Assembly: GCA_947501605.1 (NCBI GenBank)
Contig: CANMWZ010000003.1
Coordinates: 1 to 64,000, forward strand
Source of the DNA: Planctomycetota bacterium
GTDB lineage: Bacteria; Planctomycetota; UBA1135; UBA2386
Direction of reading: 5' to 3'
Length of the DNA: 64,000 bases
Below are positions 39,548-55,435 of this stretch, piece after piece. The position numbers and the translations under genes are program-made. Within the stretch, counting starts at the first letter, position 1; each line of letters opens with the position of its first letter. Below the pieces are notes generated by a model. The model worked only from the letters and a program-made list of their open reading frames with translations. It made no database searches and had not been told where the DNA came from.

Positions 39548-39707
39548 CGGAGCATTGTGCAGCCGGATGGCTGTACTGCCAGCCCGGTGCCAAGACGGTC
39601 TGCTCCCGAGACTTGCTCGCTGGTTCCCGTAGTTGCATTCGCACCGCACGCCTGGGAGCCTGTCCGTCCGTCTGGATCCACGAATCCGGGCCCGACCCTC
39701 CCAACCG

Positions 39708-41393
39708 ATGGCCAGTTCCGACGCGCTCCGTCTGCAGACCGCCCTCCTGCAACTCCACCGACGTGCTCTCCAGGACCACCGTCTGCAGGCAGAACTGGCT
39801 CGCGCTCGACGTGAGTTTTTCGGTGTCGAGCCAGGGGTGAAGGTCCGACCGACTGCCGAACTGCGCTTCCTCGAATGGGCGCTCCTCGAGCGTGAGAGCC
39901 TTGCGCTGGCCTCGATCCCGAGTGACGTGCTTGCGGAACCAGGCGATGACGATGCGCTGACCGGTTCAGCCGTCGGCGTCTACACGGTTGAGTCCGTCGA
40001 AGAGGAACGCGTCGACGCGCGCGACCTGCAGGACGAGGACACCGTCGAGTTGCTGGTGCCGCAAGGAACCCTGCAGATCGGCGACCTCATGGTCGGACGC
40101 ATCTATGGAACCCTCCGCGGCACGTGGCAGCCCTCCGCGGCAGTTGCGATCTACCGCCCAGGGGCGGCGCTTGCCAAGGCGTTTCAACGCGACCTCAAGC
40201 GCCTCGAACTGGAGCGTCGCCTCACCCAGGTCGAGATCGAACACCTCTTGTTGCGGCAGCAGACGCCGGACCACGAGCTCGCGGCCCCGGATACTGGGCC
40301 GACACCGGCGCCAAAGCTGATTCCGGGTCGGCAAGTCGAGCACATCGAAGCTGAGTTGGAGACCGTGCTCAGCGCTGGCGGTGTCCCTGGCCTGACGACC
40401 GAGGTCAGTGACTCCTTGGCCCAGACCGAGCGAATGGGAGCGGTGACTGGGCCGCTGCTCGAGCAACTGGCATTCGAGACAGAGGTCGATCTCGACCGCG
40501 CCCGGCGACTCCTGATCGAGTTGTGGAACGCGCACCACAGCGGCAGCCCCCAAGAGCTATCGCCCGAGCCGGCGAAGCCACGCGGCCCGATCGAGCTTGC
40601 AGAGATCCCCGGGGAGACCCTGGGGGAGCGCCTCGCACGCCTGCTCAACGAAGGTCTCTCGCAAAAGCGCGACGTCACCGAGTTGTTCCGCCAGCTCGAA
40701 GCCATGGCCGGAATTGAAGACGAGGAAGAGGGTGCCGATGACGACGCTCTTGGTGACGCCGGTCCGGCGATGATCCACGCCCTGGAGGGCGAGGACTTTG
40801 GCGATCTGGCACCGCTGGTGACCGAGTACTTGTGGGAAACCGCGCAAAGCGGTTCGGAAGCCGAAGGGCTCCTCCAGCTCTGGATCGCGCTGCAACAGAA
40901 TGCAGCGCTGCCGCACACGAACCTGGATGACGTGACTGGGCAGGACCTGATGCGCTTGCTGCTGCATGTCTACCTGCGTGCGGAACCAACGGGGCGCGCA
41001 GCGGCCGTTCGCACGGCATTCGCCGCGGTCACTGCGTTTTCGGTTTGGGCCGAAGCGACCCAGGAATTGTCCCTCAAGAGTGCGCTGCTCAGTTGCCAGG
41101 GCCACTTACTCGACCATCTCGACCGGCTCCAGGAAGTGGGCATCCGGTTGACAACTGCCACCAAAGAAGGGGCTTCGACCCCAGGCCTGCTGCACGTCGA
41201 GGACATCGCCGTCGATGGCTTCGGCGTACGCGGCGACGAGAGCAGCCACTGGATCGAGACGACCACGCAGATTGCAACGCTGCTGCGCCACGGCGACTTG
41301 CTCCTAGCGGCCCTGGTGGAGCACGGCACCGAAGCGATCTTCTCGGGCCCGGTAGTCGCGTTGCCTGCCGACGCCGAAGCCCTGGTCGGATGA
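39708..41393 (+). CDS. Acidic hypothetical protein
   Basis: About 561-aa ORF with coding-like composition and no recognised motif. Confidence 0.7.
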   Translation: MASSDALRLQTALLQLHRRALQDHRLQAELARARREFFGVEPGVKVRPTAELRFLEWALLERESLALASIPSDVLAEPGDDDALTGSAVGVYTVESVEEERVDARDLQDEDTVELLVPQGTLQIGDLMVGRIYGTLRGTWQPSAAVAIYRPGAALAKAFQRDLKRLELERRLTQVEIEHLLLRQQTPDHELAAPDTGPTPAPKLIPGRQVEHIEAELETVLSAGGVPGLTTEVSDSLAQTERMGAVTGPLLEQLAFETEVDLDRARRLLIELWNAHHSGSPQELSPEPAKPRGPIELAEIPGETLGERLARLLNEGLSQKRDVTELFRQLEAMAGIEDEEEGADDDALGDAGPAMIHALEGEDFGDLAPLVTEYLWETAQSGSEAEGLLQLWIALQQNAALPHTNLDDVTGQDLMRLLLHVYLRAEPTGRAAAVRTAFAAVTAFSVWAEATQELSLKSALLSCQGHLLDHLDRLQEVGIRLTTATKEGASTPGLLHVEDIAVDGFGVRGDESSHWIETTTQIATLLRHGDLLLAALVEHGTEAIFSGPVVALPADAEALVG

Positions 41394-41581
41394 CGGGTTG
41401 GCCCTGGTCGGATGACGGGCTAGCCCTGGTCGAACGCGGGGTCGCAACGGAAACCGGGTCGCTGCGGTGCGTTCGGTGGACGGATCTTCCGCTCGTGCCG
41501 CGCCGACCCCAGCGGCGCTAGAGAACTGCGGCAAAGTCCGCCGTGTCGGGGCGTCGATTGCCCAGGTGGAGGATGCCACGA

Positions 41582-43675
41582 ATGGGCTTCGACACCGAGA
41601 TCGATCGTCTGCTGCGTAACCAGGTCCATCTCGCCGAAAAGGGGGAAGTAAAGCCAGAAGCCGTACGCCAACAACTGATCGACCTTTGGCAGTTGGCCGG
41701 GCCGCGGGCGCCATCGGCGTTCTTGCTCGGCTACAGCAAAGTTCTGCTCGGGCTCGACCTTGGACCTGTGCCTGAAGGCAACCTGCGACGTTGGTTCGTG
41801 TTTGGCTGCATGCGTGCCCACGATCGCCGCGGCGAACGCAACTGGATCGCGGACATGGTTCAAGATCCTGCGGCGCTGGCCGACCTGCTTGCGGATCCCG
41901 TGCTGGCAGCGCAAGTGCTTCCCCTGTGCGTGCGGACGCTTTTCTGGTGCGGCGACCTGAAGCTCGCACTGCGCGCAATCGAGTATCTGGCTGCCGACGC
42001 AACCTCCCCAGAACTGGCCTTGGTGGTGGATGCAGCGGTGACCGACTTGCTCGCGCGGCTCGAAAAGCGAGAGGAAGGCGAGGACGAAGAAAGCACCGCA
42101 TCCATCCTCGGAAAGGTCATGGGGATCGCGGGATTTGACCGCTTGCCGTCGGATGTGCGCGGTCGCTACCACAAGGCTCTGGCCGAACGTCTGCTCTTGG
42201 GCAGCGAGTGGGATTCGGCCGGACAACACGCAGTCGCTGCGGCGGCGCTGTCGACCGCCCAGTCGCGCATGCACAGTGCGTGCAACGCGGTGGCGGCTCT
42301 GGCTCATCTGCGGGTCCATCGCTTGGAGGACCTCGAGCCTCATGCAGATCGCAACGACCGGGAGCCAGCACTTGCACTTGTGCGACATGTCGAGAGTGAG
42401 ACGGGAGAAGCCGCACCAACCGCCCACTTCCTGCGCGGCATCCTCGCCTACGAAACTGGTGATTACGCGGTCACGACCAGGAGTCTCGAAGCTGCGGTAC
42501 ATGGCATGCGTCGCCAAGATGGCCGCGACGAACAGATCGCCGATCGAGCCCGGTTCTTCTTGGCCGCATCGCTCCTGGCGCAGGGACTCCCGGAAGACTC
42601 GTCGCGGGCTCTCAAGCTCATGGAGCGTTCGCTCGACACCGTCAAACCGGACCTCGAGACCTTCTACTCGGTACACGAAGCTCTGAAGAAACTGGATCGA
42701 TCGATCGCCCTGCGATTTCTCGATCAGGTCGACATCGGTCGCGGCCGCTCCCCGGACCAATTGCTGATGGTCGCACTGGAGTACCTGTCGCTAGGGGAAG
42801 CGCCCAAGGCCCTGAGCGCGGCCGAGCGCGTCCTCGCGGTTGCCGTGGACCTGGACCAGCGGCTCGAGGCGATGCGGGCGATCCTGACTGCTCGAAACAT
42901 GCAGGGACAGCGCGAGCAGGCGAGGTCGTGCTTCGCCGACATGCGTGACCTGCTGATGCAACGGGGCGCCTTCGATCAGCTGGAGAAGATGCTGCAGAAC
43001 GAGGCCTTCGTCGGTCAGGCTCTCGATCATTTCGACATCAAGCTCGAACTCGCCAACCTCTACGAAGAGATGGAAGGGAAGGACTACGAGCGAGCCCAAC
43101 TACAGATCGCGATCGCGCGATCATTCCGCGCCCGCAAGGAAGTCGAGTGCCTGCAGCAGGCCCACGGCTTGCTCCTGGAAGTGAGTTGCCATCATCCAGA
43201 GCTCGCGGCGGAAGACCTCCTCGCGATCGAACGGATGTTGGAGCTGAACGAGGCCTCTCCGGTCGATTCGGATGCTGGTGCAGCAGCTGGCAAGGCGCTC
43301 GGCAAGCAACTCGGCCACGCAGTCCGTGTCCTAGTGGTCGGCGGCAACGAGCGTCAGCGGCGGCATCACTCGAAATTCGTGGATCTGGCCACGCGCTGGG
43401 GACTCGAAGGCGAGTGGCTCGAGACCAACTACACTTCCCCGCAGAAGATCGTCGGGCAGATCGCCGATCGCATGCGTGCAGGCATCGACGTCTTGGTGCT
43501 GCTTCACTGGAATCGCCACGAGACCACGGAGCCAGCCCTCGAACTAGCGCGCAAGAGCGCGGTCCACGCGCGCACCGTCCACTATGCAGGATTCACGAGT
43601 CTGCAGGTCGCCCTCGGCGAGATGCTGCAGAAGCTCACACAACAGAAGCCTGCCAGAGTCGCCGCAAGAGCCTGA
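41582..43675 (+). CDS. TPR-like helical protein with C-terminal DUF2325-like alpha/beta domain
   Basis: Helical repeats; C-terminal VRVLVVGGNERQ...IDVLVLLHWNRH. Confidence 0.6.
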   Translation: MGFDTEIDRLLRNQVHLAEKGEVKPEAVRQQLIDLWQLAGPRAPSAFLLGYSKVLLGLDLGPVPEGNLRRWFVFGCMRAHDRRGERNWIADMVQDPAALADLLADPVLAAQVLPLCVRTLFWCGDLKLALRAIEYLAADATSPELALVVDAAVTDLLARLEKREEGEDEESTASILGKVMGIAGFDRLPSDVRGRYHKALAERLLLGSEWDSAGQHAVAAAALSTAQSRMHSACNAVAALAHLRVHRLEDLEPHADRNDREPALALVRHVESETGEAAPTAHFLRGILAYETGDYAVTTRSLEAAVHGMRRQDGRDEQIADRARFFLAASLLAQGLPEDSSRALKLMERSLDTVKPDLETFYSVHEALKKLDRSIALRFLDQVDIGRGRSPDQLLMVALEYLSLGEAPKALSAAERVLAVAVDLDQRLEAMRAILTARNMQGQREQARSCFADMRDLLMQRGAFDQLEKMLQNEAFVGQALDHFDIKLELANLYEEMEGKDYERAQLQIAIARSFRARKEVECLQQAHGLLLEVSCHHPELAAEDLLAIERMLELNEASPVDSDAGAAAGKALGKQLGHAVRVLVVGGNERQRRHHSKFVDLATRWGLEGEWLETNYTSPQKIVGQIADRMRAGIDVLVLLHWNRHETTEPALELARKSAVHARTVHYAGFTSLQVALGEMLQKLTQQKPARVAARA

Positions 43676-43726: not shown

Positions 43727-45130
43727 ATGCGACGGCCCATCGATGACGACAGCCTGCCCGCCAAAGTCGACTGCTTGATCGTCGGTGGCGGCCCCGCCGG
43801 TGCAGCCCTCGCCGGGTTGCTGGCACGCAGCGGCCACATGGTCTTGGTCGTGGACGACGGCGCGCTGCGAACAGGCTCTCCGCTCGAGACGTTGATGGCT
43901 TCCGCCTTGCAGTCGCTGGATCGCTGCGGCCTCGGGGAGATCGTTCGCGCGACCGCCGAAGTCGACCGCCGACGGCACGGCGCGCGGTGGGACGCCGACG
44001 AGGTTGCTTGGCGCGACGAGGGCCGCTCCGGCCTGTGCCTTCGCCGCGGAGTGTTTGATGACGGACTTCGCGACTGGGCCGTGAAGTGTGGAGCGCGCGT
44101 GCTTCGACCGGCAACGGCAGTGGAGCTACCAGATGGTGGTCAGGGCTCCGCCCGAATCCGAGTTGCAGGTCGCGACCTTTTCATCGAGGCGAACACGATC
44201 GCCATTGCGACCGGACGCCGGAGTGTCGCCGTGCTTGCCAGCGCAGAGATCGTTGAGCAGGGACCGCCGACCGCGGCGTTCGCGTTCCAGATCGAGGCCG
44301 AAAGCGAGACCGGAGCAGTGGCCATGGTGACGGCCGCGCCCGACGGCTGGTGCTGGTGGATCGGGGACGAGCGGGGTGGTGCGCGGCTGGTGGCGACTGT
44401 GGACGCAGACACGTTGGGCGAACCACTGCGCGCGGTCGTCGACCGCGTCCTCGAGTATGCCGGCAGTGCGTTCGGTGGCCGACGCGCAGCCGTACTCGAA
44501 ACTGCCGTGCGGGCAACCTCTCGCCGCGCCACGACGCCGCGTGGCTATTGGCTGGTAGGTGACGCGGCGGCGACACTCGATCCGTTGGCAAGTCAGGGGA
44601 CAGAGAAGGCCTTGGTCGGAGCCGAATCCGCAGCACTGGGGATTCGCACGGCTCTGGCGAACCCAGCGCTGCGAGGGCTCGCGATCGCCCAGCATCGCCG
44701 CTGGGAGCACGAGCTGTATCAGGCCCACGCGCGCACGACGGCGGCGTTCTATTCTCGCGTAGGTCGCTTCGCGGAGCGCCCGTTCTGGGCACGCAGGTCA
44801 CAGCTACCGCCGTCGCCGAACTTCGGTGCGCTACCGCATCGCCTCGTTCGCGCACCGGATCTGCTCGAAGGCCCGATGCTGGTCCGCCACACCGAGGAAC
44901 TGGTCTTGACGCCTGGGTTCGCGCGCTTGGCGGCGGAGCCGATCGCTCGCATCGGCCGCGTCACGGTGGCGCCGCTGCTGGCCGCATTTGCGCGTCCGCG
45001 CTCGGTCGCAGACGGGCTTGCCATCGCCGGACAAGACCCCAGGCTGTTCGTGATGGGCAGCGCCGTCGTGCGCGCCGCTGTCGTCGAACTCTGGCGAGCA
45101 GGCTTGCTCATCGCACCACAGATCGACTGA
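43727..45130 (+). CDS. qhpG: FAD-dependent monooxygenase, QhpG-like (Trp hydroxylation for CTQ)
   Basis: IVGGGPAG, LVGDAAATLDPLASQG, C-terminal winged-helix-like tail; convergent on the qhp operon. Confidence 0.75.
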   Translation: MRRPIDDDSLPAKVDCLIVGGGPAGAALAGLLARSGHMVLVVDDGALRTGSPLETLMASALQSLDRCGLGEIVRATAEVDRRRHGARWDADEVAWRDEGRSGLCLRRGVFDDGLRDWAVKCGARVLRPATAVELPDGGQGSARIRVAGRDLFIEANTIAIATGRRSVAVLASAEIVEQGPPTAAFAFQIEAESETGAVAMVTAAPDGWCWWIGDERGGARLVATVDADTLGEPLRAVVDRVLEYAGSAFGGRRAAVLETAVRATSRRATTPRGYWLVGDAAATLDPLASQGTEKALVGAESAALGIRTALANPALRGLAIAQHRRWEHELYQAHARTTAAFYSRVGRFAERPFWARRSQLPPSPNFGALPHRLVRAPDLLEGPMLVRHTEELVLTPGFARLAAEPIARIGRVTVAPLLAAFARPRSVADGLAIAGQDPRLFVMGSAVVRAAVVELWRAGLLIAPQID

Positions 45131-45140
45131 CCGCACTACC

Positions 45141-45809
45141 CTACGGCCGCAGAGATAGTGCGTTCGCCAGCATCCCGGACGTACGCGCAACCGCGAGGCT
45201 GCTGCCGTGAACGTGGGAGGGTGGCAAGCCCGGGACACCAGCCGGCGGGAAAGGCGACGCGAACCAGAACGAACCGGCGCCGACGCTCTGGAGCCGCGGC
45301 TGGGCCGCAGGCACGTTGCCATCGGCAACGACGAGTTCGAGTCCACCAATGGCTGCAAGGGCGTTGGCTCGGCCGCACGGAAGAGCTGCCGGAACGACGA
45401 TGCGCACGCCGCGATCAAGGAGGAACTTGGCGGCGTCCTTGAGCAGGGATTGCGCTTGCCGTGAGGCCCCGAAGTCGTCGTCGAAGCCAAGGCTGCAGTT
45501 GACGACGGCAACATCGGTCATCGCAATCTGACGCAACGCCGCCACCAAGGCCCGAACCGAGCTTCGACCGGCGGCATCGAACACGCGCAGGGGCACGACA
45601 ACCGCTCTCGGGCAGACACTCCACAGCGTCGTCGCAACCGCAGTTCCGTGTCCCAGTGGATCGCGAGGAATCGGCTCAGCGAAGGCGCCGCCGTCGGCGT
45701 CGATGTGCCAACCCGATTGGAGCGCGTAGCCGCGGCATCCGGGATGGCCAGGATCGATGCCGCTGTCGACCAGGGCGATGCGCACCGGACGCGGGGCGAT
45801 CTCAGACAT
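45141..45809 (-). CDS. qhpE: Subtilisin-like S8 leader peptidase, QhpE-like
   Basis: VDSGID, DPLGHGT and HGSSLA catalytic triad motifs; small size; follows qhpB. Confidence 0.8.
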   Translation of the reverse strand: MSEIAPRPVRIALVDSGIDPGHPGCRGYALQSGWHIDADGGAFAEPIPRDPLGHGTAVATTLWSVCPRAVVVPLRVFDAAGRSSVRALVAALRQIAMTDVAVVNCSLGFDDDFGASRQAQSLLKDAAKFLLDRGVRIVVPAALPCGRANALAAIGGLELVVADGNVPAAQPRLQSVGAGSFWFASPFPPAGVPGLPPSHVHGSSLAVARTSGMLANALSLRP

Positions 45810-46944
45810 CCAACATGTAGACCTGCCCCTGGATCTCGCCGTCGAACTCGACCACGCGCAGGAGCTGGAAGGTGACGGCATCGAACACCTGGAAGTCACT
45901 GCCGGCGCCGCCGACGTAGACCTTGCTACCGTCCGGCGCGATCGCTGCCAGCGACTGCCGTGGACGGAACTCGGTCTGGAACTCACGCAGCTTCTTGCCA
46001 TTCTCGAGGTCGTACAACTGGATGGTCGTCTTGCGGTCACTGCCGCCACCCCAGCCACCATTGCTCGACACAGTCAGTTTCGCATCCCGCGAAAGATAGG
46101 AACCGAACCCACTTGGTCCCTGACCCCACTCGACCATATCGGTGATCTTCTTCTGCTGGAGGTCGATATCCACGTAGCCCCAACTCGAGCGGCTGTGCTG
46201 CACCGGGTCGCTGTACGAGCACAACATGCGGTACTTGTTCGGGTCTCTGCCAAACAGCAGATCCGTGCGGCGCAGTGAGATACGGCCCTGGCCGGCGAAC
46301 TGTGGGGTGGCGAGATCGATCTTGCCCGTCTCCTTCAACGTCTTGGGGTCGACGATCTGCAGATTGCCGTCGCGGTCGAACACGTGCCATGAGAGGCCGT
46401 CGGGAGAGATCCGCGCACCGCGAGAGAGGATCTGCGGCATGCGCCGCATCTTGCGCACGATCTTTCGTTCGCCGACGTCGTAGAGCAACGTCTGCGCTGG
46501 CTGAAACTCATAGCGATCCACCAACTTCTTCACTCGATCGGTCTCGACGTACCATTGGGTCCCGCCGGGCAGTTCCGAAATGCTGCGCACGCGCACGATG
46601 ACGCCTTCTTCACTGAAGTCGTGGACCGACGCCACCGCGCCCTGCTTGCAGTCGACGATCTCAACCTTGCGCTGCGTGTCCGTGATCACGGCGAAGTGCT
46701 GACGGTCGAACAACAGGGTCACGCCCCAGGACATGCCATTCTGGAGTTGGATCTTCTTCACCACCGTGTCGGTGACTGGATCGAACTCGACCATGAAATC
46801 GGGATACGCCGCGAACCAGAAGTGCGCGGCGGGTACCGCAGGCGCGGCAGCGACGGGGTCCTGCGGTGGCGCCGAAGTGCACGCACATGCAGCGACCGAA
46901 GCCAGGCCAGCCAGCAAGAACGCGGCGATCGTAGAACGCGTCAC
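45802..46944 (-). CDS. qhpB: QHNDH beta subunit (beta-propeller) with lipoprotein-like signal
   Basis: Position after qhpC with GTGA overlap; propeller repeats (ISPDG, IAPDGSKVYVGGAGSDFQVFD). Confidence 0.78.
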   Translation of the reverse strand: MTRSTIAAFLLAGLASVAACACTSAPPQDPVAAAPAVPAAHFWFAAYPDFMVEFDPVTDTVVKKIQLQNGMSWGVTLLFDRQHFAVITDTQRKVEIVDCKQGAVASVHDFSEEGVIVRVRSISELPGGTQWYVETDRVKKLVDRYEFQPAQTLLYDVGERKIVRKMRRMPQILSRGARISPDGLSWHVFDRDGNLQIVDPKTLKETGKIDLATPQFAGQGRISLRRTDLLFGRDPNKYRMLCSYSDPVQHSRSSWGYVDIDLQQKKITDMVEWGQGPSGFGSYLSRDAKLTVSSNGGWGGGSDRKTTIQLYDLENGKKLREFQTEFRPRQSLAAIAPDGSKVYVGGAGSDFQVFDAVTFQLLRVVEFDGEIQGQVYMLDV

Positions 46945-47273
46945 GGGAACACCAAATCGATGGACTTCCAGTCTTGCACGGGCGCGCCACACGAGGCGGT
47001 CCACTTCGGGAAGTTGGTGACGCCGTCTGGCACTTGCGCTGGCCAATAGCAGGTGTGGTAGCAATCGTACAGGTCGCGCTCGATCGGCTGGCAGAGGCCG
47101 TGGACGCCGCCGCTGCTGTCGACTTCCCAGCCCGGAGCGAACACCGTCGTGCAACCATACGGATACTCCGTGGGCGGCGGATCCTGAGTCAACGGCATCA
47201 GGGCACCGCGCTGTTCGACGACGAGAGCCGCGATACGGCGCGCCTTTTGGTTGAGGGGGCGAACGTGTGTCAT
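46941..47273 (-). CDS. qhpC: QHNDH gamma subunit precursor (CTQ peptide)
   Basis: Leader MTHVRPLNQKA; core GCTTVFAPGWEVD...LCQPIERDLYDC...CYWPAQVPD...QDW...VFP matches the QhpC pattern. Confidence 0.95.
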   Translation of the reverse strand: MTHVRPLNQKARRIAALVVEQRGALMPLTQDPPPTEYPYGCTTVFAPGWEVDSSGGVHGLCQPIERDLYDCYHTCYWPAQVPDGVTNFPKWTASCGAPVQDWKSIDLVFP

Positions 47274-48691
47274 TGCGATTCGTACCTCGCGAAGAACTTG
47301 GGATCGTGCGCCATGATGCGCGCGTAAGCCTTCAGACCTTGGTCAACGTGACCGCGGATCCAGTCGCAAGCATGCAGGTTCGCTTTGCGTGCGTCCCCGT
47401 GGCGCACGTGCGCCTCGTGGTAGCAGCCACCGGCGCACAGCGGCCGGGCAAAACAAGTCTTGCAGTCGGTCTTGCGATCAATGTGGGCCTGTTCGAGAAA
47501 CGCCGTGCGGATCGACTCATCGACGCCCTTCTGCACCGTGCCGACAGCGTGGCTCTTGGATTCGACGAAGCGATGACAGAGAGCCAGTTCGCCCTCGGTC
47601 GAGACCCCGAGCAAACCAAGGCCCGCGCCACACGGATGCGCTTTCTGGATGCCCTGGTGGAGTTCGCGCAGCAGATCGTTGAGGTTGGCAAAGCCGTGCG
47701 CGCGACCCGCAATCGCGGCGGTCACGAAGTCCTCGGTGAGCGTCGCAAACTCGGACAACATGCGATCGTAGGCTCCTGGAGACAGCTCGTAGCCCCGTCC
47801 CGGCGCCGCCGTCACCGGCGCGAATCCGACTTCTTCGAAGCCCAGGTCATCGGTGAGATACCGATAGGTGTCGAGCACCGAGCCGGCGTCGTGGGTCAGC
47901 GTCACGCGCGCCCCGATCGGACGTCCGCGTTCTCGTCGATTGGTTGCGATCAAGGTGCGGATGCGTGGCTCGATGTCGGCGAACGAGCCCTTGCCGCTCT
48001 TGTAGCGACGGTGGCGGTCTTGTTCCTTCTCGTCGCCATCGATCGAGATCGTGATGCCAAAGCGGTGGGCGACCAGGAACTTGATGACCTCATCCGTGAG
48101 CAGGGTCGCGTTGGTCGTCAGCGAGAAGTGAATTCGCTTCTGGTGCCGCAGTGCCTCGGCTTCGGCATAGTCGACCGCTGCAATGATCGTCTGGAAGTTC
48201 AGCAGCGTCTCGCCGCCGAAGAACGTGATCGTCAGAACCGAGCGTTCGCCGCTGCTGCGGATCAAGAAGTCGATCGACTGCTTGGCCGTCTCCGGCAACA
48301 TCATCGCGCGCCCAGCCGGCGCATTGGCGGCGGTCAGCTTGTCGGCCCCGTACTCGTAACAATACGTGCAAGACAAGTTGCACTTGTTGGTGACGTTGAG
48401 CACCAGCGTCGCCAGCGGGAACGGCATCGGGGGCAGCGCCGCGCGCGGCGGCGAAGTCTCGCCATCTGGCCGCACGATGCCGAGGTCGATCAGGTCGCGC
48501 AGCGCCGCCTCGGCCTCGGGTTCCCCGAGTTCACGGAGAACCGTCACCGGATCCGCCGGCTCCAAGAAGGCGGCTGCAAGCCGATCCGCCAACGCATCGA
48601 CAGCGTGGATCGCCGCCGAATCCGTGAGGTAGAGATACGCGTTGCCACGGTCGTCGGTAACGCGATGGTGGAGGCCAGTGCGAAGCTTCAT
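47270..48691 (-). CDS. qhpD: QHNDH maturation radical SAM/SPASM enzyme
   Basis: CNLSCTYC, FFGGETLLNF, SPASM motifs PCGAG...CHRF...CKTC..RPLCAGGCYHE; N-terminal RRE-like domain. Confidence 0.93.
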   Translation of the reverse strand: MKLRTGLHHRVTDDRGNAYLYLTDSAAIHAVDALADRLAAAFLEPADPVTVLRELGEPEAEAALRDLIDLGIVRPDGETSPPRAALPPMPFPLATLVLNVTNKCNLSCTYCYEYGADKLTAANAPAGRAMMLPETAKQSIDFLIRSSGERSVLTITFFGGETLLNFQTIIAAVDYAEAEALRHQKRIHFSLTTNATLLTDEVIKFLVAHRFGITISIDGDEKEQDRHRRYKSGKGSFADIEPRIRTLIATNRRERGRPIGARVTLTHDAGSVLDTYRYLTDDLGFEEVGFAPVTAAPGRGYELSPGAYDRMLSEFATLTEDFVTAAIAGRAHGFANLNDLLRELHQGIQKAHPCGAGLGLLGVSTEGELALCHRFVESKSHAVGTVQKGVDESIRTAFLEQAHIDRKTDCKTCFARPLCAGGCYHEAHVRHGDARKANLHACDWIRGHVDQGLKAYARIMAHDPKFFARYESQ

Positions 48692-51027
48692 CGTTCTTCC
48701 CATTCGAGTCGGGTCCAGCGGATGTACTGCGGCACAGTGACAATCAGGCTCGCGCGGGCGCGGAAGCTCTTGCGCTCCATGAGTGGCGTCCCGCCGGTCG
48801 GCTTCAGCTCGTCGCCATCGCGCGGCGCCGGCATCGGCACTGGAATGCCCGCAGGCTCAGGCTTCGCCGCTACGGACGCTGGTTTCGGATTCGGCTCCTG
48901 CGCGCCGTCGCCGCCTGATTGTCCCGACGGCTGGGGGTCAGCACTCTCGGCCGGCTTCTCTGGGACATCCGGCTTCGGGGCTGCCGTGGACTTCGGCGGT
49001 GGTTCAGGACGCACCGGCACATCCAGTGCGACGGTGCACTCGACATAGACTTCGCCGATGTTGTTGGCGGACCATTTGCGCTGCACGTTCGGGCCGTCGA
49101 TCGCAGGCGTGAACTCGCCCGTCGCGCCATCGAGCGTGCCGACATAGCTGAGGTCGTCGTCATCATCGCGGACGATCGCTTCGCGCAGTGAGAACGTCGC
49201 CGGCACCATCCACAAATCGACATCGTCGGCAGTGAAGGGCTTCTCGTCCGGTCCGCGTGTGACGGTCACCGCTTCGAAGCGCTCGAGTTGCTTGGGGAAG
49301 CGGGCGCCACCAATGCGCGCAAGTCCCTGGGTCGGACGAATGCGCACGTAGTCGACGGCGTCATAGAGGCGGATTCGCGCGCGCGTTGGCTCGATGCCGA
49401 AGGCGACATCGCGCAAACCGACCGGGGTGCCAGGCGCGACATCGAGCCACAGTCGGCAGTCCGTAGGACTCGTACGTTCACAGCGCGTGACGGTGACTCC
49501 GAGACCGAGATGAAAGTCCGCAGCACGGAGCGTTTCCGGGAACGCGTCGCCGCGCACCGAGAGCACGTGGTCCTTGGCCGGCACGGTGACAAACGGTGCC
49601 GAGATCGCGAGGACACGCGGCACGCCGCGATGACGCACCATCGAGATGTCGACGCCGATCTCGTCGTAATCACCGGTGAAGAAGCGCCCGCGCATCGAGT
49701 CCCAGCGCTCGTCCAGCAGCAGCACCTCACGCCATGTGCGACCGCCTTCGCCGGGATCCGTCGCCCGACCGCGCCAGCTGTAGCCGCCGTAGAGCAAGCC
49801 CCGTCCGCGGCGGTCGATCTTGGCGCCACCCTGGACCTCGAGTTGCCAGTGCACTTCGTAATCGCCGTCCTCGACGCGAACGATGGTGGCGGTTCCGATC
49901 AGATCGCCGCGGCCGATCTCGTGACCCGTGACGGTCCAGTTCCCGGCGAGCGGCACCTCGCGACGGTTGATCGCCCACTCATTCCAGTCGTCGCTGAACA
50001 GCGCCTGCTTGTCGCCGAGTGCGGCGAGCACCCGATCGCCGCGATTGCCTTGGCGCGGACCTTGACCGCCGTCGCCAGAACCGCCAGCCGGCCCAGAACC
50101 GCCCGCCGGCGCGGCCGCGCCGCCGGTTGCACCGCGTCGGCCGCCGCGCGCCGCTGGGGCGGCGCCGCCACCTTGGCCACCGAATCGCTCCTCATCGTCC
50201 GGTGGACCGCCGCCGATCGAACCACGCGCGAGCGGGAACATGGCGACGTGCGTGTTGCGCAGCTGTTGCCATTCCTCGGCGTCCCGGGCCTGGCCGAGCA
50301 CGCGACCCAAGGTGTGGCAGCCCGAGCAAGCTTCGCGGAAGTCGGCGTCCTGGTGCTCCTCGGACCAGTGCACCCGCCGTTCACTTTCGTAGAGGCTGCG
50401 CTCGGCCTCCGCTCGGGTGAGGCCGTGGCGATCGGCGAGATAGCGCACGACCGCTTTGGCATCGGCGGGGGACATCTGCAGCCCGTGCAAGCGAATCATC
50501 CGCTTCAACGACTCGGACCAACCCTCGGGCGACTTGCGCATGTAGCTGATGCGCGTCATTAGGCCATTGGGGTCGCGCTGGTGACAACGAGCGCAGTGCG
50601 TCTCGACCAGGAGATCGGTCACTGGGATGCCGCGGCGCTGAGGCTTTGGCTCTTCGACCGCACCTTCGTCCTCGTTGTCCGCATTCTGCCCATTGCCCTG
50701 GCCACCTTCGGCGCCGCCGCGACGACCGCGACGTGGCGCGTCACCCTCGGGTCGCTCGACGATTGCGCCAGCCGCAGGCGGTTGTGTCGGAGCGGTGCCC
50801 GGCTCTTGGCCGCTCGCGGGTGTTGTCGTGCTGGCTCGGGCCGATGGAGTCTCCGGCGCGGGCTGCGGCACTACCGCGGGAATCGGTGGGTGGCCGGCTG
50901 GGAGCGGCTGCTGGGCCGGCTCCTGCGCCGTGAGCGCGCCGGACCACGTGAAAACGAGAAGGCAGCCAGCCAGGACGGATTTCATGCGCAGGGGGAACCG
51001 CGGTGAGAGCTCGTCGCGCATTGGCAT
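48688..51027 (-). CDS. qhpA: QHNDH alpha subunit (diheme c)
   Basis: Signal peptide; CARCH and CSGCH heme motifs; RKSPEGW; FTPAIDGPN.QRK..ANNIG; LIVTV; start may be ATG 50985. Confidence 0.93.
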   Translation of the reverse strand: MPMRDELSPRFPLRMKSVLAGCLLVFTWSGALTAQEPAQQPLPAGHPPIPAVVPQPAPETPSARASTTTPASGQEPGTAPTQPPAAGAIVERPEGDAPRRGRRGGAEGGQGNGQNADNEDEGAVEEPKPQRRGIPVTDLLVETHCARCHQRDPNGLMTRISYMRKSPEGWSESLKRMIRLHGLQMSPADAKAVVRYLADRHGLTRAEAERSLYESERRVHWSEEHQDADFREACSGCHTLGRVLGQARDAEEWQQLRNTHVAMFPLARGSIGGGPPDDEERFGGQGGGAAPAARGGRRGATGGAAAPAGGSGPAGGSGDGGQGPRQGNRGDRVLAALGDKQALFSDDWNEWAINRREVPLAGNWTVTGHEIGRGDLIGTATIVRVEDGDYEVHWQLEVQGGAKIDRRGRGLLYGGYSWRGRATDPGEGGRTWREVLLLDERWDSMRGRFFTGDYDEIGVDISMVRHRGVPRVLAISAPFVTVPAKDHVLSVRGDAFPETLRAADFHLGLGVTVTRCERTSPTDCRLWLDVAPGTPVGLRDVAFGIEPTRARIRLYDAVDYVRIRPTQGLARIGGARFPKQLERFEAVTVTRGPDEKPFTADDVDLWMVPATFSLREAIVRDDDDDLSYVGTLDGATGEFTPAIDGPNVQRKWSANNIGEVYVECTVALDVPVRPEPPPKSTAAPKPDVPEKPAESADPQPSGQSGGDGAQEPNPKPASVAAKPEPAGIPVPMPAPRDGDELKPTGGTPLMERKSFRARASLIVTVPQYIRWTRLEWEER

Positions 51028-51122
51028 GGGACGCGACCCTTAGACCATAGCCATGAACTCCCCCGGAGGGACAGCACCGGGGCAGCAAACATCGGGGCCC
51101 TCGTCGCCAGTGCGATCTGCCG

Positions 51123-52832
51123 CTACGACGCCCGAACCTGACCGCCCTCTAGGTGCACGATGCGATCCACGGCCACCGAGTCCGGTGGGCGATGGTCGAT
51201 CCACAACACGGTGCAAGGCCGCGGCAGCACCGAAAGGTAGCGCGCGAGGACGCGCTGCGCCGCCGCATCCAAGAACGCGAATGGCTCGTCGAGCACCAAG
51301 AGATCTGCCGGGCGCAACAACGTGCGCACAAGCAACAGTCGCCGCCACTGCCCGGCACTGAGTTCGTGGCTGCCGGCGAAGCTGCGGCCAAGCGGCGTGC
51401 CGAAGTCGTCGGGCAAGCCCGTCAACAGTTGGTCGAGACCCGCGGCCGCTGCACGCGCGCGGAGCGAAGCGTCCTCTTTGGCCTCGGCGCCAAACTCCAG
51501 GTTGTCGCGCACCGTGAGTTCGAACCCAACCGTGTCCTGGAAGAACACCGCAACGCGGCCGCGTAACTCCGCGGCGGCAACCGTGCGCAGATCGACGCCA
51601 TTGAGCAGCACTTCGCCCGCAGTCGGCAAGGCCAACCGACACAGCAACCGTACCAGGGTCGACTTGCCAGCGCCGTTGCCGCCAAGCAACGCGATGCGCT
51701 CGCCCGCCGCAATCTCGAGATCGACGCCGCGCAGCGCCGGCGAGGAACTCCCTGGGTAGCTGTAGCACACACCACGCAGGGCGATGGCCAGCGACCCCGC
51801 GGGCACTCGCGATGCGATCGCTGCGGTCACGGCCGCGGGCAAAGCCAGCGTTGGCTTGGTGGAAAGGAACCGGAACAGATGCTGCACGAAGCGCTGGTCG
51901 TCGCGCAGCGCAGCGTGGGCGAGCAAGCTGTCGCGCATGCCGTTCTGCGTTCGTTGAACGGCCTGCGCCTGCAGCAGCAATCCACCCAGCGTCAACTCCG
52001 AACGCAATGCCGCGAACGCGAGGAACGCATAGGCAGCAAACATGGCCAGCGTCGACAACGCTTGCGCCGCAGTCTCGGCGCGCGTGCGTCGGCGCATGAG
52101 ATCCAACTGCTCCTCGGTGAGGCGCGCGCGTTGTCGGTCGACGCGGATGGCCAGTGGTTCGGCGAGGTCGAGCAGGCGCACGTCCTTGGCCCAAGGCCGG
52201 CCGACGAGAATGCCGGCAAGGTAGCCGAGCCGACGCTGGGCTCCGGTGTTGGCTTCCTGCCACGAGAACTGCAGCCGGCTGTGGCGATGGCGCACGAGAA
52301 CCTGCGGCACGGCGGCGAGCGCGACCACCAGTGGCAGCCAGACGGCAGCCGTCGCGGTCGCGAGGACCATCGAAACCAACATCGCCGAAGCGACCACGAA
52401 GGCGGCAAGATCTTGGACGACCCTCGTTGGTCGGGTCAGAGCGTCGCCGGCGGCCCGGTGCAGCAGGTCGCGCACTTCTGGGGATTCGACCTGCTCCAGG
52501 TCGAGCGCGGCAGCGTGCCGTTGGACCAAGCTGGCGCAGCGATCGCCGCACAGGCGCGCGTGCCGTTCCCCGATCGCCGTGGCCACGGCGCCAATCACGG
52601 CACCAAACAGGGCGATGACGGACGCGGCACCGACCGCAAACCAGATCTCGGCTGCGACATCGGGCACCCCGCTGACGCCGCGTTGGACGGCATCGAGCAA
52701 GCGCTGCATCGCTAGCAACCCGAGCAGGGGCAGCGCACCTTGGCCGAGGCGCAGGGCGAGGTTCTGCCACAGCAGCGAACGACCCGCGAGTGCCGCAAGA
52801 CGCAGGGCCGATCGCAACGGGACGGCGGCCAT
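51123..52832 (-). CDS. qhpF: ABC exporter (fused TMD-NBD), QhpF-like
   Basis: TM helices, GGNGAGKST, LSAGQ, LVLDEP; head of the qhp operon. Confidence 0.72.
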   Translation of the reverse strand: MAAVPLRSALRLAALAGRSLLWQNLALRLGQGALPLLGLLAMQRLLDAVQRGVSGVPDVAAEIWFAVGAASVIALFGAVIGAVATAIGERHARLCGDRCASLVQRHAAALDLEQVESPEVRDLLHRAAGDALTRPTRVVQDLAAFVVASAMLVSMVLATATAAVWLPLVVALAAVPQVLVRHRHSRLQFSWQEANTGAQRRLGYLAGILVGRPWAKDVRLLDLAEPLAIRVDRQRARLTEEQLDLMRRRTRAETAAQALSTLAMFAAYAFLAFAALRSELTLGGLLLQAQAVQRTQNGMRDSLLAHAALRDDQRFVQHLFRFLSTKPTLALPAAVTAAIASRVPAGSLAIALRGVCYSYPGSSSPALRGVDLEIAAGERIALLGGNGAGKSTLVRLLCRLALPTAGEVLLNGVDLRTVAAAELRGRVAVFFQDTVGFELTVRDNLEFGAEAKEDASLRARAAAAGLDQLLTGLPDDFGTPLGRSFAGSHELSAGQWRRLLLVRTLLRPADLLVLDEPFAFLDAAAQRVLARYLSVLPRPCTVLWIDHRPPDSVAVDRIVHLEGGQVRAS

Positions 52833-53004: not shown

Positions 53005-54072
53005 TCATGGCCGTGGCCCCCGCCATGCGGAGCCTTGGTCGGGCAACCATGCCATCGCCAGCACCAAGGTGAAGTCGGGCGCAATGTAGGGCGACAGGTC
53101 TTCGCCAAAGACCACCTCGACGAAGAGCTGGCGGTCGACCCGCATGCGGGCGCCGAGCCACAGCCACACCTGGTCGCGGTTCGCTCGGTCGAGATCGAGA
53201 TTGCGCAGCACGGACGTCTCCCAGGACAGTTGCGCCACGCTACTGAAGTCACTGAGCAGCGGAACTTCGAGCCCGAGGCTCGCGGCACTCACATCCCCAA
53301 ACGCGAAGCTGCGCGAGCGCGCGAGGTCGGGAGTCCCGGCCCACGTGTACTGGCCGTCCGCGAACAACGTGCCGAACGCCAGCGGCCAACTGGCGCACAG
53401 GCCAGCTGCGTAGTCGAACTGGCCATTGCCAGCGCCGCCGCTCTCGTCGCCAGTTGGCAATTCGAAACCGGTGCGCAACGCCAATCCCGGCAGTCCCGCG
53501 CCGCTGGCGCTGCGACCTGGCGGCACGAGGCACCAGGTAGCCGACACGGGCACGTCCGCAAGCATGAGCGTCTCTTCGCGCAGCTCCCACACGGTCTGCC
53601 CGTTTTGCTCGGCGAAAACTTCGAATTGATTCTGCGGCGCGACGCTGCGGCCCTGGTCCGGGAAGCCGAAGAAGTCGTGGTAGTCGATGAGAAAGCCATC
53701 GAGAAAACCACCGCTGGTGTGCACCACCGGGAGCTCCACGGTCAGCTCGATGCCAGCGCCGATTCCCGTTCGTCCTTGGATGCTGGTGCGCATCAGTTCG
53801 CCGTCCATCGCGAATGCCTCGGTGGCGTTGCTGTCGCCGAGAAACAGACTCGAGTAGGCCGTGCTCGCCCGAACCGCCGTGTCGCCGCTTGGCAGCACCG
53901 AAGGCGAGGCCGGATCCAGCCGCATCACGGTCAACTGGGCGGGGTGCTGGTTGCGCACCGCCAGCGGTCCATGGCTGGGCGCCGGGCCAGCGCTGCATGC
54001 CGAGGCCGACACCGCGACTGCAGTCCACCAGCCGACGGCACCTCGTTCTGTGCACTTGCGCGTTACGTGCAT
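53005..54072 (-). CDS. DUF3187-family putative outer-membrane beta-barrel protein
   Basis: GPLAVRNQHP, DGELMR, SGGFLDGFLIDYHDFFGFP, LPTGD, EDL...APDFT. Confidence 0.75.
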   Translation of the reverse strand: MHVTRKCTERGAVGWWTAVAVSASACSAGPAPSHGPLAVRNQHPAQLTVMRLDPASPSVLPSGDTAVRASTAYSSLFLGDSNATEAFAMDGELMRTSIQGRTGIGAGIELTVELPVVHTSGGFLDGFLIDYHDFFGFPDQGRSVAPQNQFEVFAEQNGQTVWELREETLMLADVPVSATWCLVPPGRSASGAGLPGLALRTGFELPTGDESGGAGNGQFDYAAGLCASWPLAFGTLFADGQYTWAGTPDLARSRSFAFGDVSAASLGLEVPLLSDFSSVAQLSWETSVLRNLDLDRANRDQVWLWLGARMRVDRQLFVEVVFGEDLSPYIAPDFTLVLAMAWLPDQGSAWRGPRP

Positions 54073-54208
54073 CGGGACAGAACGTAGTGAGCCTGCGCGC
54101 CGAAGTCGCGCGTGTTCCGTGCACCGTAGACGACTTCAGGCGGCCCTGTCCGTGCCGCCTTCGATTGTTAGACTCTGCCCCCCGCGCCACGCGCGCGCTG
54201 CCGACCGC

Positions 54209-55435
54209 ATGCACCGATTCCAACCCCAAACGCTCCTGTTCCCGTTCCTGTTGCTGGTTGCCTGCGCTGATGGCGGCAAGACCGAAGTGCCACAGAGCGA
54301 AGTCCAGATCGCCGCCAACCATCACGTGATGTGGTTTCGCAGCCTGCCTGGCTTCGGTAGTTCTGCTACCCGCCCACTGGCCGTCAACTCCGGACACGCG
54401 ACACTCGCGATGGCTGCCGACAGCACCTACACGCTGGTGTTCGCTGGCGGCGGCACCTCGTCGAAGGAGCGCTACGCGATCGCCAACACCGCCAAGCTGT
54501 CGATCTACCAGACCGGTTCGGGCCGGAATCCATCGACGGTCTTCCAAGGCGGCTACCAACTGGTTGGTGCGCGGCCAGACCTGTTCTTCACCGATCGCGT
54601 CTCGGCCGGTGATTCGACCTCGATCGGGCTCTACTTCGGCGCCCGCACGGTACTGGGCCAGGACGAACTCGAAGGCGCTTGGCACCTGTTCTCGATGCAC
54701 GTGATGATGCAGAACGCGACGCTGCAAACACCGCGCACCGTCGCGCGCGCGGCATTTGGTGAAGTGTCCGTTGCCGCCGGCGCGCCCGGAACAGCTCGCG
54801 CGATCAGCGGCACTGGCTTTGAGTCCGGGGCCGACCCGAGCACGGTTCCGGTCACTCTGAGCGGCCAAGTTACGAACCTGCTCGATGGCAGCCAGCAGGG
54901 CAACGGCATCTGCAACCTCACGGTCGGCTACACCAACACCGGTTCGGCGACGGATAGCCGGGTGTTCTGGGCTGCGGCCGGCAGCGACCTGCTATTCGCT
55001 GTCGACGAGGACGAAACCGACACCGCGTCGGGCCTTCTCGCGATGGTGCGCAAGTTCGCCGCGCCCGCAACCCCGGCCGATCCAGCGCGGATTGCCGGCA
55101 CGTTCTACGTCGGCGGCTACACCACCTTCGTGAACCCCACCAACGCCGGCTCCGACTCCTTCGTCGGCGAACTTCTGCTCACTCCACAGGGCGCCGTTCG
55201 CCTCGACGGACTGGATCACCGCGGCGTCGATTTCGCCTACACCGGGACCTGGACCTCGACGGCCGAAGGCGGCTTGACGCTGCAGATCAGTGGCAATGGC
55301 GGCGAGACGTGGCGCGGCGCCGTGGCGCGTAGCTATGACACGTTGGTGTTCGTGGACCCGGTTGTCGAAGTGCGCACGAACAACACGCCCGAGCTCAACT
55401 TCGTGCACGCGGTGCGCAAGCGCTCGAACCCGTAG
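54209..55435 (+). CDS. Beta-rich hypothetical lipoprotein
   Basis: Lipobox LVAC after a hydrophobic stretch; Thr/Gly-rich beta-strand pattern. Confidence 0.7.
   Translation: MHRFQPQTLLFPFLLLVACADGGKTEVPQSEVQIAANHHVMWFRSLPGFGSSATRPLAVNSGHATLAMAADSTYTLVFAGGGTSSKERYAIANTAKLSIYQTGSGRNPSTVFQGGYQLVGARPDLFFTDRVSAGDSTSIGLYFGARTVLGQDELEGAWHLFSMHVMMQNATLQTPRTVARAAFGEVSVAAGAPGTARAISGTGFESGADPSTVPVTLSGQVTNLLDGSQQGNGICNLTVGYTNTGSATDSRVFWAAAGSDLLFAVDEDETDTASGLLAMVRKFAAPATPADPARIAGTFYVGGYTTFVNPTNAGSDSFVGELLLTPQGAVRLDGLDHRGVDFAYTGTWTSTAEGGLTLQISGNGGETWRGAVARSYDTLVFVDPVVEVRTNNTPELNFVHAVRKRSNP

Follow-up and report, generated by a model that had tools for sequence, protein, structure and literature searches.

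A quinohemoprotein amine dehydrogenase gene cluster from a Planctomycetota bacterium belongs to an uncharacterized branch with fixed differences around the cofactor

The biochemistry of quinohemoprotein amine dehydrogenase (QHNDH) found in the literature comes from two proteobacteria, Paracoccus denitrificans (1JJU/1PBY) and Pseudomonas putida (1JMX/1JMZ; the flavoprotein QhpG, 7CTQ). The corresponding genes, qhpADCBEFG(R), encode a dihaem alpha subunit, a propeller beta subunit, a gamma subunit with three Cys-Asp/Glu pairs and the Cys37/Trp43 residues of cysteine tryptophylquinone (CTQ), a radical SAM enzyme (QhpD), a subtilisin-like protease (QhpE), the flavoprotein QhpG and an ATP-binding cassette (ABC) exporter. 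Counterparts of all of these (a putative one for QhpG), with the same A-D-C-B order, are found in a cluster of seven genes (positions 43727..52832) in a 64,000-nucleotide stretch of contig CANMWZ010000003.1 from a Planctomycetota bacterium (the window). CTQ is also found in LodA and GoxA, which have QhpG-related flavoprotein maturases (LodB/GoxB) and are single-chain oxidases without a thioether-caged gamma peptide, haems or a radical SAM maturase. LodA and GoxA provide a precedent for amino-acid substrates (PMC11951088, in the part available).

By the core features of its predicted products, the cluster is a member of the QHNDH family and belongs to an uncharacterized branch with fixed differences around the cofactor. 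It probably holds the full subunit and maturation set of a Planctomycetota–Acidobacteriota branch, its product likely being a periplasmic CTQ enzyme for a primary amine other than the alkylamines on which the studied enzymes act. Identity to the proteins of Paracoccus pantotrophus is ~42% for the gamma precursor, ~40% for QhpD, ~30% for alpha and 29–30% for QhpE and QhpG, while beta barely aligns pairwise. Compared with the Paracoccus and Pseudomonas systems, the cluster has a longer gamma leader, a longer alpha and Arg-Pro-Arg in place of His-x-Tyr-Tyr in beta; its exporter is probably not an orthologue, and neither QhpR nor an aldehyde dehydrogenase was found next to it. The sister clade, from Acidobacteriota and Novosphingobium sp. 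RL4 (NZ_CP141945.1), shares Asp36, Cys61-Asp67, the lack of Asp12, Pro40 and Trp42, and the Arg motif of beta, but differs in gene order, (G)-A-D-C-B-F-E, in its canonical-type QhpF and, in some members, in a U32 gene pair instead of qhpG; the searches made turned up no characterized enzyme among these clusters.

Subunits and predicted cofactor

The gamma-subunit precursor is encoded by qhpC (46941..47273, minus strand, 110 amino acids), matches PF08992 at 111 bits and NF037958 at 127 bits (cut-off 50), and has a leader of ~34 residues as judged by alignment. The mature part aligns without gaps to 1jju_C and 1jmx_G and keeps all three crosslink pairs (Cys7/Glu16, Cys27/Asp33 and Cys41/Asp49) together with Cys37/Trp43, the predicted CTQ pair (C71 and W77 of the precursor; 47043..47063, minus strand). 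The latter two residues do not vary at all, either across the in-register loci (108 of 108) or across the homologues (117 of 117).

The dihaem alpha subunit is encoded by qhpA (48688..51021, minus strand, 777 amino acids; start at 51021 or 51027), which scores 388 bits against TIGR03908 (cut-off 274) and matches all four alpha domains, PF09098, PF14930, PF09099 and PF09100. Both CXXCH motifs and the axial Met and His ligands are present, and the haem ligands C143/C146/H147, M175, C232/C235/H236 and H258 are conserved in the clade and in canonical sequences. Its excess length is due to an N-terminal extension and two low-complexity inserts, of a kind found throughout the clade with widely varying lengths.

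The beta subunit, encoded by qhpB (45802..46944, minus strand, 380 amino acids), is divergent: it scores 37 bits against TIGR03907, far below the cut-off of 223, with the right family as its best NCBIfam match, and the beta of the acidobacterial sister scores 53. A profile built from 71 homologues nevertheless has 1jmx_B as its top match in the Protein Data Bank (PDB), over the whole length (E = 2.5e-20), and aligns with the eight canonical betas by hhalign at 99.9% over 308 columns. The AlphaFold model (predicted local distance difference test score 94) has 1jju_B and 1jmx_B as its best Foldseek and VIA-align matches (Z 19.6–19.8, root mean squared deviation 5.6–5.7, 304–309 aligned; next match Z 15.4), and by both profile and fold the gene encodes a propeller homologous to QhpB. 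The check by hidden Markov models that the sequence-only reading had proposed thus succeeded for alpha, gamma and QhpD and failed for beta, part of an outcome that this reading had named as refuting it, though profile and fold recover beta. A signal peptide on beta was judged by eye; a lipoprotein anchor was considered and rejected, as a possible lipobox is not conserved among 26 N-termini viewed by eye. Predictions of a gamma–beta complex scored 0.00 and 0.01 and were counted neither way, unmodified gamma being a poor target.

Maturation proteins

The thioether-forming maturase QhpD (47270..48691, minus strand, 473 amino acids) lies directly next to qhpC, scores 510 bits against TIGR03906 (cut-off 453), and carries a CX3CX2C motif and seven SPASM cysteines, ten conserved cysteines in all, spaced as in Paracoccus QhpD. 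The putative leader peptidase QhpE (45141..45809, minus strand, 222 amino acids) is of subtilisin type (PF00082), and its Asp, His and Ser motifs align with those of canonical QhpE. The QhpG-like flavin adenine dinucleotide (FAD)-dependent protein, a predicted peptidyl-tryptophan hydroxylase (43727..45130, plus strand, 467 amino acids), has NF049967 as its best NCBIfam match, and NF038171 and NF038174 also match at 62–70 bits. Its top PDB sequence match is a halogenase (E = 2e-17), with QhpG (7ctq) about equal (E = 9e-17), and it keeps the equivalents of Glu42, Trp74, Trp181 and Trp183, the key residues named for QhpG in the available part of PMC7876137. The host genome encodes cytochrome c assembly proteins and carries two COX1 genes, which is compatible with an O2-dependent QhpG.

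Membership of the whole cluster in a QHNDH system follows from family matches and intact catalytic motifs in every gene, and the completeness claimed from the letters alone has been upheld by family, profile, fold or motif support for the parts. What speaks against such a complete set, apart from the beta score, is that QhpE reaches 85 bits against NF049966 (cut-off 165), with the right family as best match, and the FAD protein 180 bits against NF049967 over positions 2–406 of 423 (cut-off 240). These low scores and the long alpha inserts would fit a decaying cluster, or an unrelated propeller at the beta position, with no active enzyme as the outcome. Either is very improbable: all seven open reading frames (ORFs) are open with motifs intact, the arrangement recurs in dozens of genomes, the best profile and structure matches of beta are to QHNDH beta, and alpha inserts of this kind are seen clade-wide.

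If maturation follows the course described for Paracoccus and Pseudomonas (PMC7876137 and PMC11951088, both available in part), for which the needed residues are present in the window, QhpD would bind the QhpC leader and form Cys7-Glu16, Cys27-Asp33, Cys41-Asp49 and probably Cys61-Asp67. The FAD enzyme would then dihydroxylate Trp43 using O2, QhpE would remove the leader, and the crosslinked peptide would probably be exported by the adjoining ABC exporter. Alpha and beta would probably be exported separately, with alpha gaining two c-haems; the peptide would join them, and Cys37 and Trp43 would give CTQ. CTQ would oxidize an amine with Asp33 as the proposed base, and electrons would pass to the haems, to some carrier and on to a haem-copper oxidase.

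Phylogenetic position

A quick tree of concatenated A, D and B sequences (39 rows, chosen from 53 aligned loci to cut near-duplicates) resolves three groups: Planctomycetota (support 100), the six proteobacterial references (also 100), and Acidobacteriota joined by Novosphingobium RL4 (99). A more careful QhpD tree (30 rows, three outgroups) places the Planctomycetota and the Acidobacteriota–Novosphingobium group as sisters at 98/98. In both trees, with six references, the window sequences do not nest among Paracoccus- or Pseudomonas-type sequences, and an approximately unbiased (AU) test rejects a single clade of Planctomycetota and canonical references (p = 0.016), a grouping that was named after the tree had been viewed and in the presence of long outgroup branches. 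The suggestion of a distinct clade is thereby borne out, with full support against the proteobacterial references, and placement of the cluster outside the clade of characterized proteobacterial QHNDHs is supported on these alignments. Three features of the trees pull the other way: the root of the QhpD tree is weak (75/27) with long outgroup branches, the references are six to eight proteobacterial sequences, all from plasmids, and the trees contain no alpha, beta or QhpD from Bacillota or from delta and epsilon lineages. With this weak root and these lineages absent, what the trees support is the outside placement and not the branching of the whole family.

The Novosphingobium sp. RL4 locus (L114, on plasmid NZ_CP141945.1) is of acidobacterial type, and both trees nest it within Acidobacteriota. 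An ORF that resembles QhpG weakly lies between its beta and exporter genes, and its flanks carry genes for sulfotransferases, a dipeptidyl peptidase and a TonB receptor.

Fixed changes around the cofactor

The gamma signature was counted in loci selected with the Pfam model rather than with the window sequence. Thirty-one of 33 loci from host relatives and the host phylum (window included) and 23 of 30 from the second phylum are in register, the nine others being divergent or partial peptides. Asp36, Cys61 and Asp67 occur in all 54 in-register gammas (31/31 and 23/23), Pro40 and Trp42 in none and Asp12 in four, whereas the canonical proteobacterial gammas have Asp12, Gly/Ala36, Pro40, Trp42 and Ala61 in eight of eight cases. 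The window gamma itself has Ala12, Asp36, Tyr38, His39, Thr40, Tyr42 and Cys61. At the beta loop where His, Tyr and Tyr of His-x-Tyr-Tyr are invariant in eight of eight canonical sequences, the window has Arg-Pro-Arg (R327–R329; 45958..45966, minus strand; the hhalign register is good to a residue or two), with the first Arg present in 70 of 71 clade sequences and the second in 51 of 71.

Cys61, the fifth conserved cysteine of gamma, and Asp67 (C95 and D101 of the precursor; 46971..46991, minus strand) have the spacing of Cys27-Asp33, and no conserved spare cysteine that could serve as a disulfide partner for Cys61 was found in alpha or beta; the simplest explanation is therefore a fourth thioether, which we consider somewhat more likely than not. 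Asp67 is, however, also conserved in canonical enzymes that have no Cys61, so its conservation is no proof of a crosslink. The notion that Cys61 is specific to the planctomycete-type clade was rejected, since the residue also occurs in Bacillota and other lineages, and it may be ancestral. The Bacillota gammas (Bacillus badius, Aneurinibacillus) share Cys61 with Asp67 but keep Asp12, Gly36 and Trp42, and thus lack the rest of the signature. A fourth thioether, if true, would extend the natural processivity of QhpD, which is relevant to peptide-crosslinking biocatalysis.

On balance, a substrate range unlike that of the studied enzymes seems rather probable from these replacements. Loss of Asp12 together with the conserved Arg in beta is a weak pointer to an anionic amine (an amino acid or aminosulfonate, for example), which we offer as a tentative candidate only. 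The most far-reaching possibility, a speculative one, is that the branch constitutes a second class of QHNDH with four radical-SAM thioethers plus CTQ, a pocket rebuilt by loss of Asp12, gain of Asp36 and the Arg-Pro-Arg of beta, and modular maturation (in exporters, and in O2-dependent QhpG or an O2-independent U32 pair), working as a respiration-linked amino-acid or aminosulfonate dehydrogenase of uncultured planctomycetes and acidobacteria.

Against a changed substrate, Asp12 is retained by a few clade members, and it is our assumption that gamma Asp12, Pro40 and Trp42 and the His-x-Tyr-Tyr loop of beta line the substrate pocket. The part of PMC7876137 available to us lists Asp12 and Asp39 as surface acids and describes Trp42 as docked into QhpG; given this tie to QhpG binding, the gamma changes may track a divergent QhpG rather than the substrate. 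An ordinary, broad-range alkyl- or arylamine dehydrogenase, in which the differences reflect deep divergence and co-evolution with the maturases, would fit the unchanged CTQ residues, Asp33 and haem ligands and the scores of alpha, gamma and QhpD above equivalog cut-offs. Cys61 is, moreover, also present where Asp12 and Trp42 are retained, in Bacillota and further lineages, so that the derived state may be that of the proteobacterial enzymes studied so far. We regard such an ordinary enzyme as unlikely, because the replacements are fixed across two phyla, with a near-invariant Arg in the beta loop, and because the genes for amine induction and aldehyde disposal that canonical loci carry were not detected next to it.

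If the substrate does differ, an enzyme common in soil and freshwater would be misannotated as a 'butylamine-type dehydrogenase', and organic nitrogen would be respired by an unrecognized route. Novosphingobium sp. RL4, a named isolate with the sister form, is a possible test organism and makes the substrate question testable.

Gene order, exporter and accessory genes

All seven genes are at the places and on the strands first read from the sequence. Overlapping stop and start codons, claimed for the whole A/D/C/B/E series, are present at A/D and D/C (ATGA) and at C/B (GTGA), each with a 4-nucleotide overlap; B and E overlap by 8 nucleotides, with the start and stop codons themselves apart. 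The FAD monooxygenase gene is convergent with qhpE, their stops lying 10 nucleotides apart, and the exporter gene lies 95–101 nucleotides upstream of qhpA.

The description of this layout as 'rearranged' was overstated, because A-D-C-B is the order in all eight proteobacterial reference loci (A-D-C-B-E in five of eight); only F and G move, and such movement was already known. Among 67 non-acidobacterial, planctomycete-type loci, counted wherever the flank allowed and including kin that are not independent, A-D-C is seen in 49 of 50 and C-B-E with a convergent G in 40 of 47. The window layout is thus the usual one for its phylum.

The ABC exporter (51123..52832, minus strand, 569 amino acids; PF00005) occupies the qhpF position. 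Of the 33 planctomycete-type loci whose flank is long enough, 23 have the exporter upstream of qhpA and in its orientation. In a quick tree with midpoint rooting only and with long paralogue branches, the exporter group (Shimodaira–Hasegawa-like approximate likelihood ratio test support 99) falls outside the canonical, acidobacterial and divergently oriented planctomycete QhpF sequences (95), and other exporters of the host genome outscore it against P. pantotrophus QhpF. This is the weakest assignment of the cluster: since the protein clusters apart from canonical QhpF, the name qhpF given to it earlier reflects its position, and it is probably a non-orthologous stand-in.

No regulator ORF lies beside the cluster in the window. 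BLAST with one P. pantotrophus QhpR query matched nothing in the host genome or among 81 clade loci, which differ in length, and one aldehyde dehydrogenase query gave no match in the same 81 loci, whereas QhpR and/or aldehyde dehydrogenase is present in eight of eight canonical loci. The use of a single query for each tempers the weight of these absences.

Host and distribution

The predicted planctomycete host was corroborated: on genome contigs that have a name, almost all of the nearest relatives of gamma carry the label Planctomycetota, and the 90%-identity cluster of the window FabF has a member with that label, the three other housekeeping proteins found in the same collection having no named member. 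Recent transfer into the host genome was considered and rejected, since the composition is neighbour-like (GC content and third-position GC of the cluster match those of adjoining genes), flanking genes are common to relatives and the nearest homologues all have planctomycete labels. The gamma gene is present as one copy in the host genome, which is 91% complete.

Members of the gamma family occur in 7 of 41 host relatives, in 4 of 24 other genomes of the host's family and in 26 of 401 sampled Planctomycetota genomes (~6%); a count over host-phylum genomes of at least 90% completeness gave 30 of 401, and the phylum of a Blastocatellia-labelled genome gave 25 of 301 (~8%). Matches in both phyla are mostly of the divergent form. 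The rarity implied by the sequence-only reading was therefore overstated: besides these counts, NCBI has already named gamma subunits from Planctomycetota metagenome-assembled genomes, and the available part of PMC7876137 reports the qhp operon in >1300 species, with varying arrangement, order and strand. Gram-positive examples and one in Arcobacter are likewise given in the parts available of PMC8172795 and PMC2147049, respectively. Judged by titles and abstract openings, no literature on planctomycete or acidobacterial QHNDH or on a fifth gamma cysteine was found, a mention in Nakai 2012/2014/2015 or Datta 2001 being possible.

Clustering of neighbouring genes revealed no conserved catabolic or transport genes and no substrate clue around the cluster. 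Together with the housekeeping genes among which the cluster lies, and with a family in which seven of seven sampled genomes carry gamma, including genomes of 2.6–2.9 Mb, this would suit a CTQ enzyme outside amine catabolism, one that carries out a periplasmic housekeeping oxidation of an amino group on a peptide, an envelope component or another nitrogen compound. Such a role is nonetheless improbable in view of the patchy distribution in the host's family and phylum, and no candidate macromolecular substrate is linked to the cluster.

A separate planctomycete-phylum genome (L207; G137:C23:16300-36200) carries a very divergent gamma-like peptide with the order D-A-C; beta, E and F were not detected in that stretch.

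A U32 gene pair in related clusters

Some relatives' clusters have a pair of U32-type genes, UbiV-like and UbiU-like, between qhpB and qhpF (L097:11448-13354, L103:11621-13575, L107, L108, L185, L100/L204, L206 and most of L224–L298), the window having the QhpG form. The U32 protein matches PF01136 and scores 81–90 bits against the UbiU model, far under the cut-off. Its partner has no Pfam, NCBIfam or PDB sequence match; four cysteines are invariant in 68 of 68 partner sequences with the spacing CXnCX18CX3C (for UbiV, CXnCX12CX3C is given in the available part of 10.1101/587956), and its structural model weakly resembles TIM barrels, with the U32 protein 5d88 at rank 4.

Across 124 gamma-bearing loci, some of them duplicated, 79 have QhpG only, eight the pair only, none both and 37 neither, many of the last being short. 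In 80 metagenome loci picked by the partner of the U32 protein, gamma lies upstream in 37 of the 42 whose flank is long enough and U32 lies downstream in 54 of 60, while none has QhpG (0/80; 0/12 with long flanks). Four of 25 genomes carry the partner, each time beside a gamma-like gene; it was not found in the host genome. U32 proteins have been associated with hydroxylation that is independent of O2 (PMC10990095 and PMC11574389, in the parts available), and the pair is a candidate O2-independent tryptophan hydroxylase; no literature joining U32 and quinohemoprotein was found.

Several odd clusters were also seen. L208 and L218 (G877:C9:3060000-3090000) and L223 have three divergent gamma-like peptides (CC..PGWE, C...C.W and extra cysteines) with a QhpD-like enzyme, the U32 pair, an exporter and a protease. 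BLAST detected neither alpha nor beta there, and the genome holds another, weaker copy of the U32 pair elsewhere. In L100/L204 (G031:C18), gamma and beta accompany the U32 pair, but neither alpha nor QhpD lies within ~10 kb, which suggests a split or haem-less cluster. No full-length match resembling QhpG (best ≤107 bits) and no U32 partner came from the genomes of L089, L101, L109, L111, L113, L184 and L073.

Surroundings and transcription

The neighbours of the cluster, named from reading their translations, are housekeeping genes (thiC, purC, recA and fatty-acid genes). A DUF3187 gene (53005-54072, minus strand) lies just 5' of the exporter in the same orientation and occurs only in the loci of 16 close relatives, probably reflecting local synteny. 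Three long ORFs on the plus strand (39633-41393, 41543-43675 and 53861-55435) have no Pfam or NCBIfam match; the second, of 710 amino acids, ends 51 nucleotides before the qhpG-like gene on the same strand and is kept there in 18 related loci.

A promoter scan returned no sigma-70-like sites and was uninformative, as were ten terminator-like sites against 6.1 ± 3.0 by chance. Parts of the stretch are present in six metatranscriptome runs from three studies. Four RNA libraries were compared as assembled contigs: two cover all 30 bins evenly, which could be explained by DNA carry-over, and one has contigs over B-C-D-A, one of them bridging B-C-D, with little over F, E or G. Since contigs cannot rank genes and there was no silent control, transcription is not demonstrated by these libraries. 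At position 47022, within qhpC, three of the four RNA-library assemblies share a synonymous third-position difference from the window, most likely strain variation.

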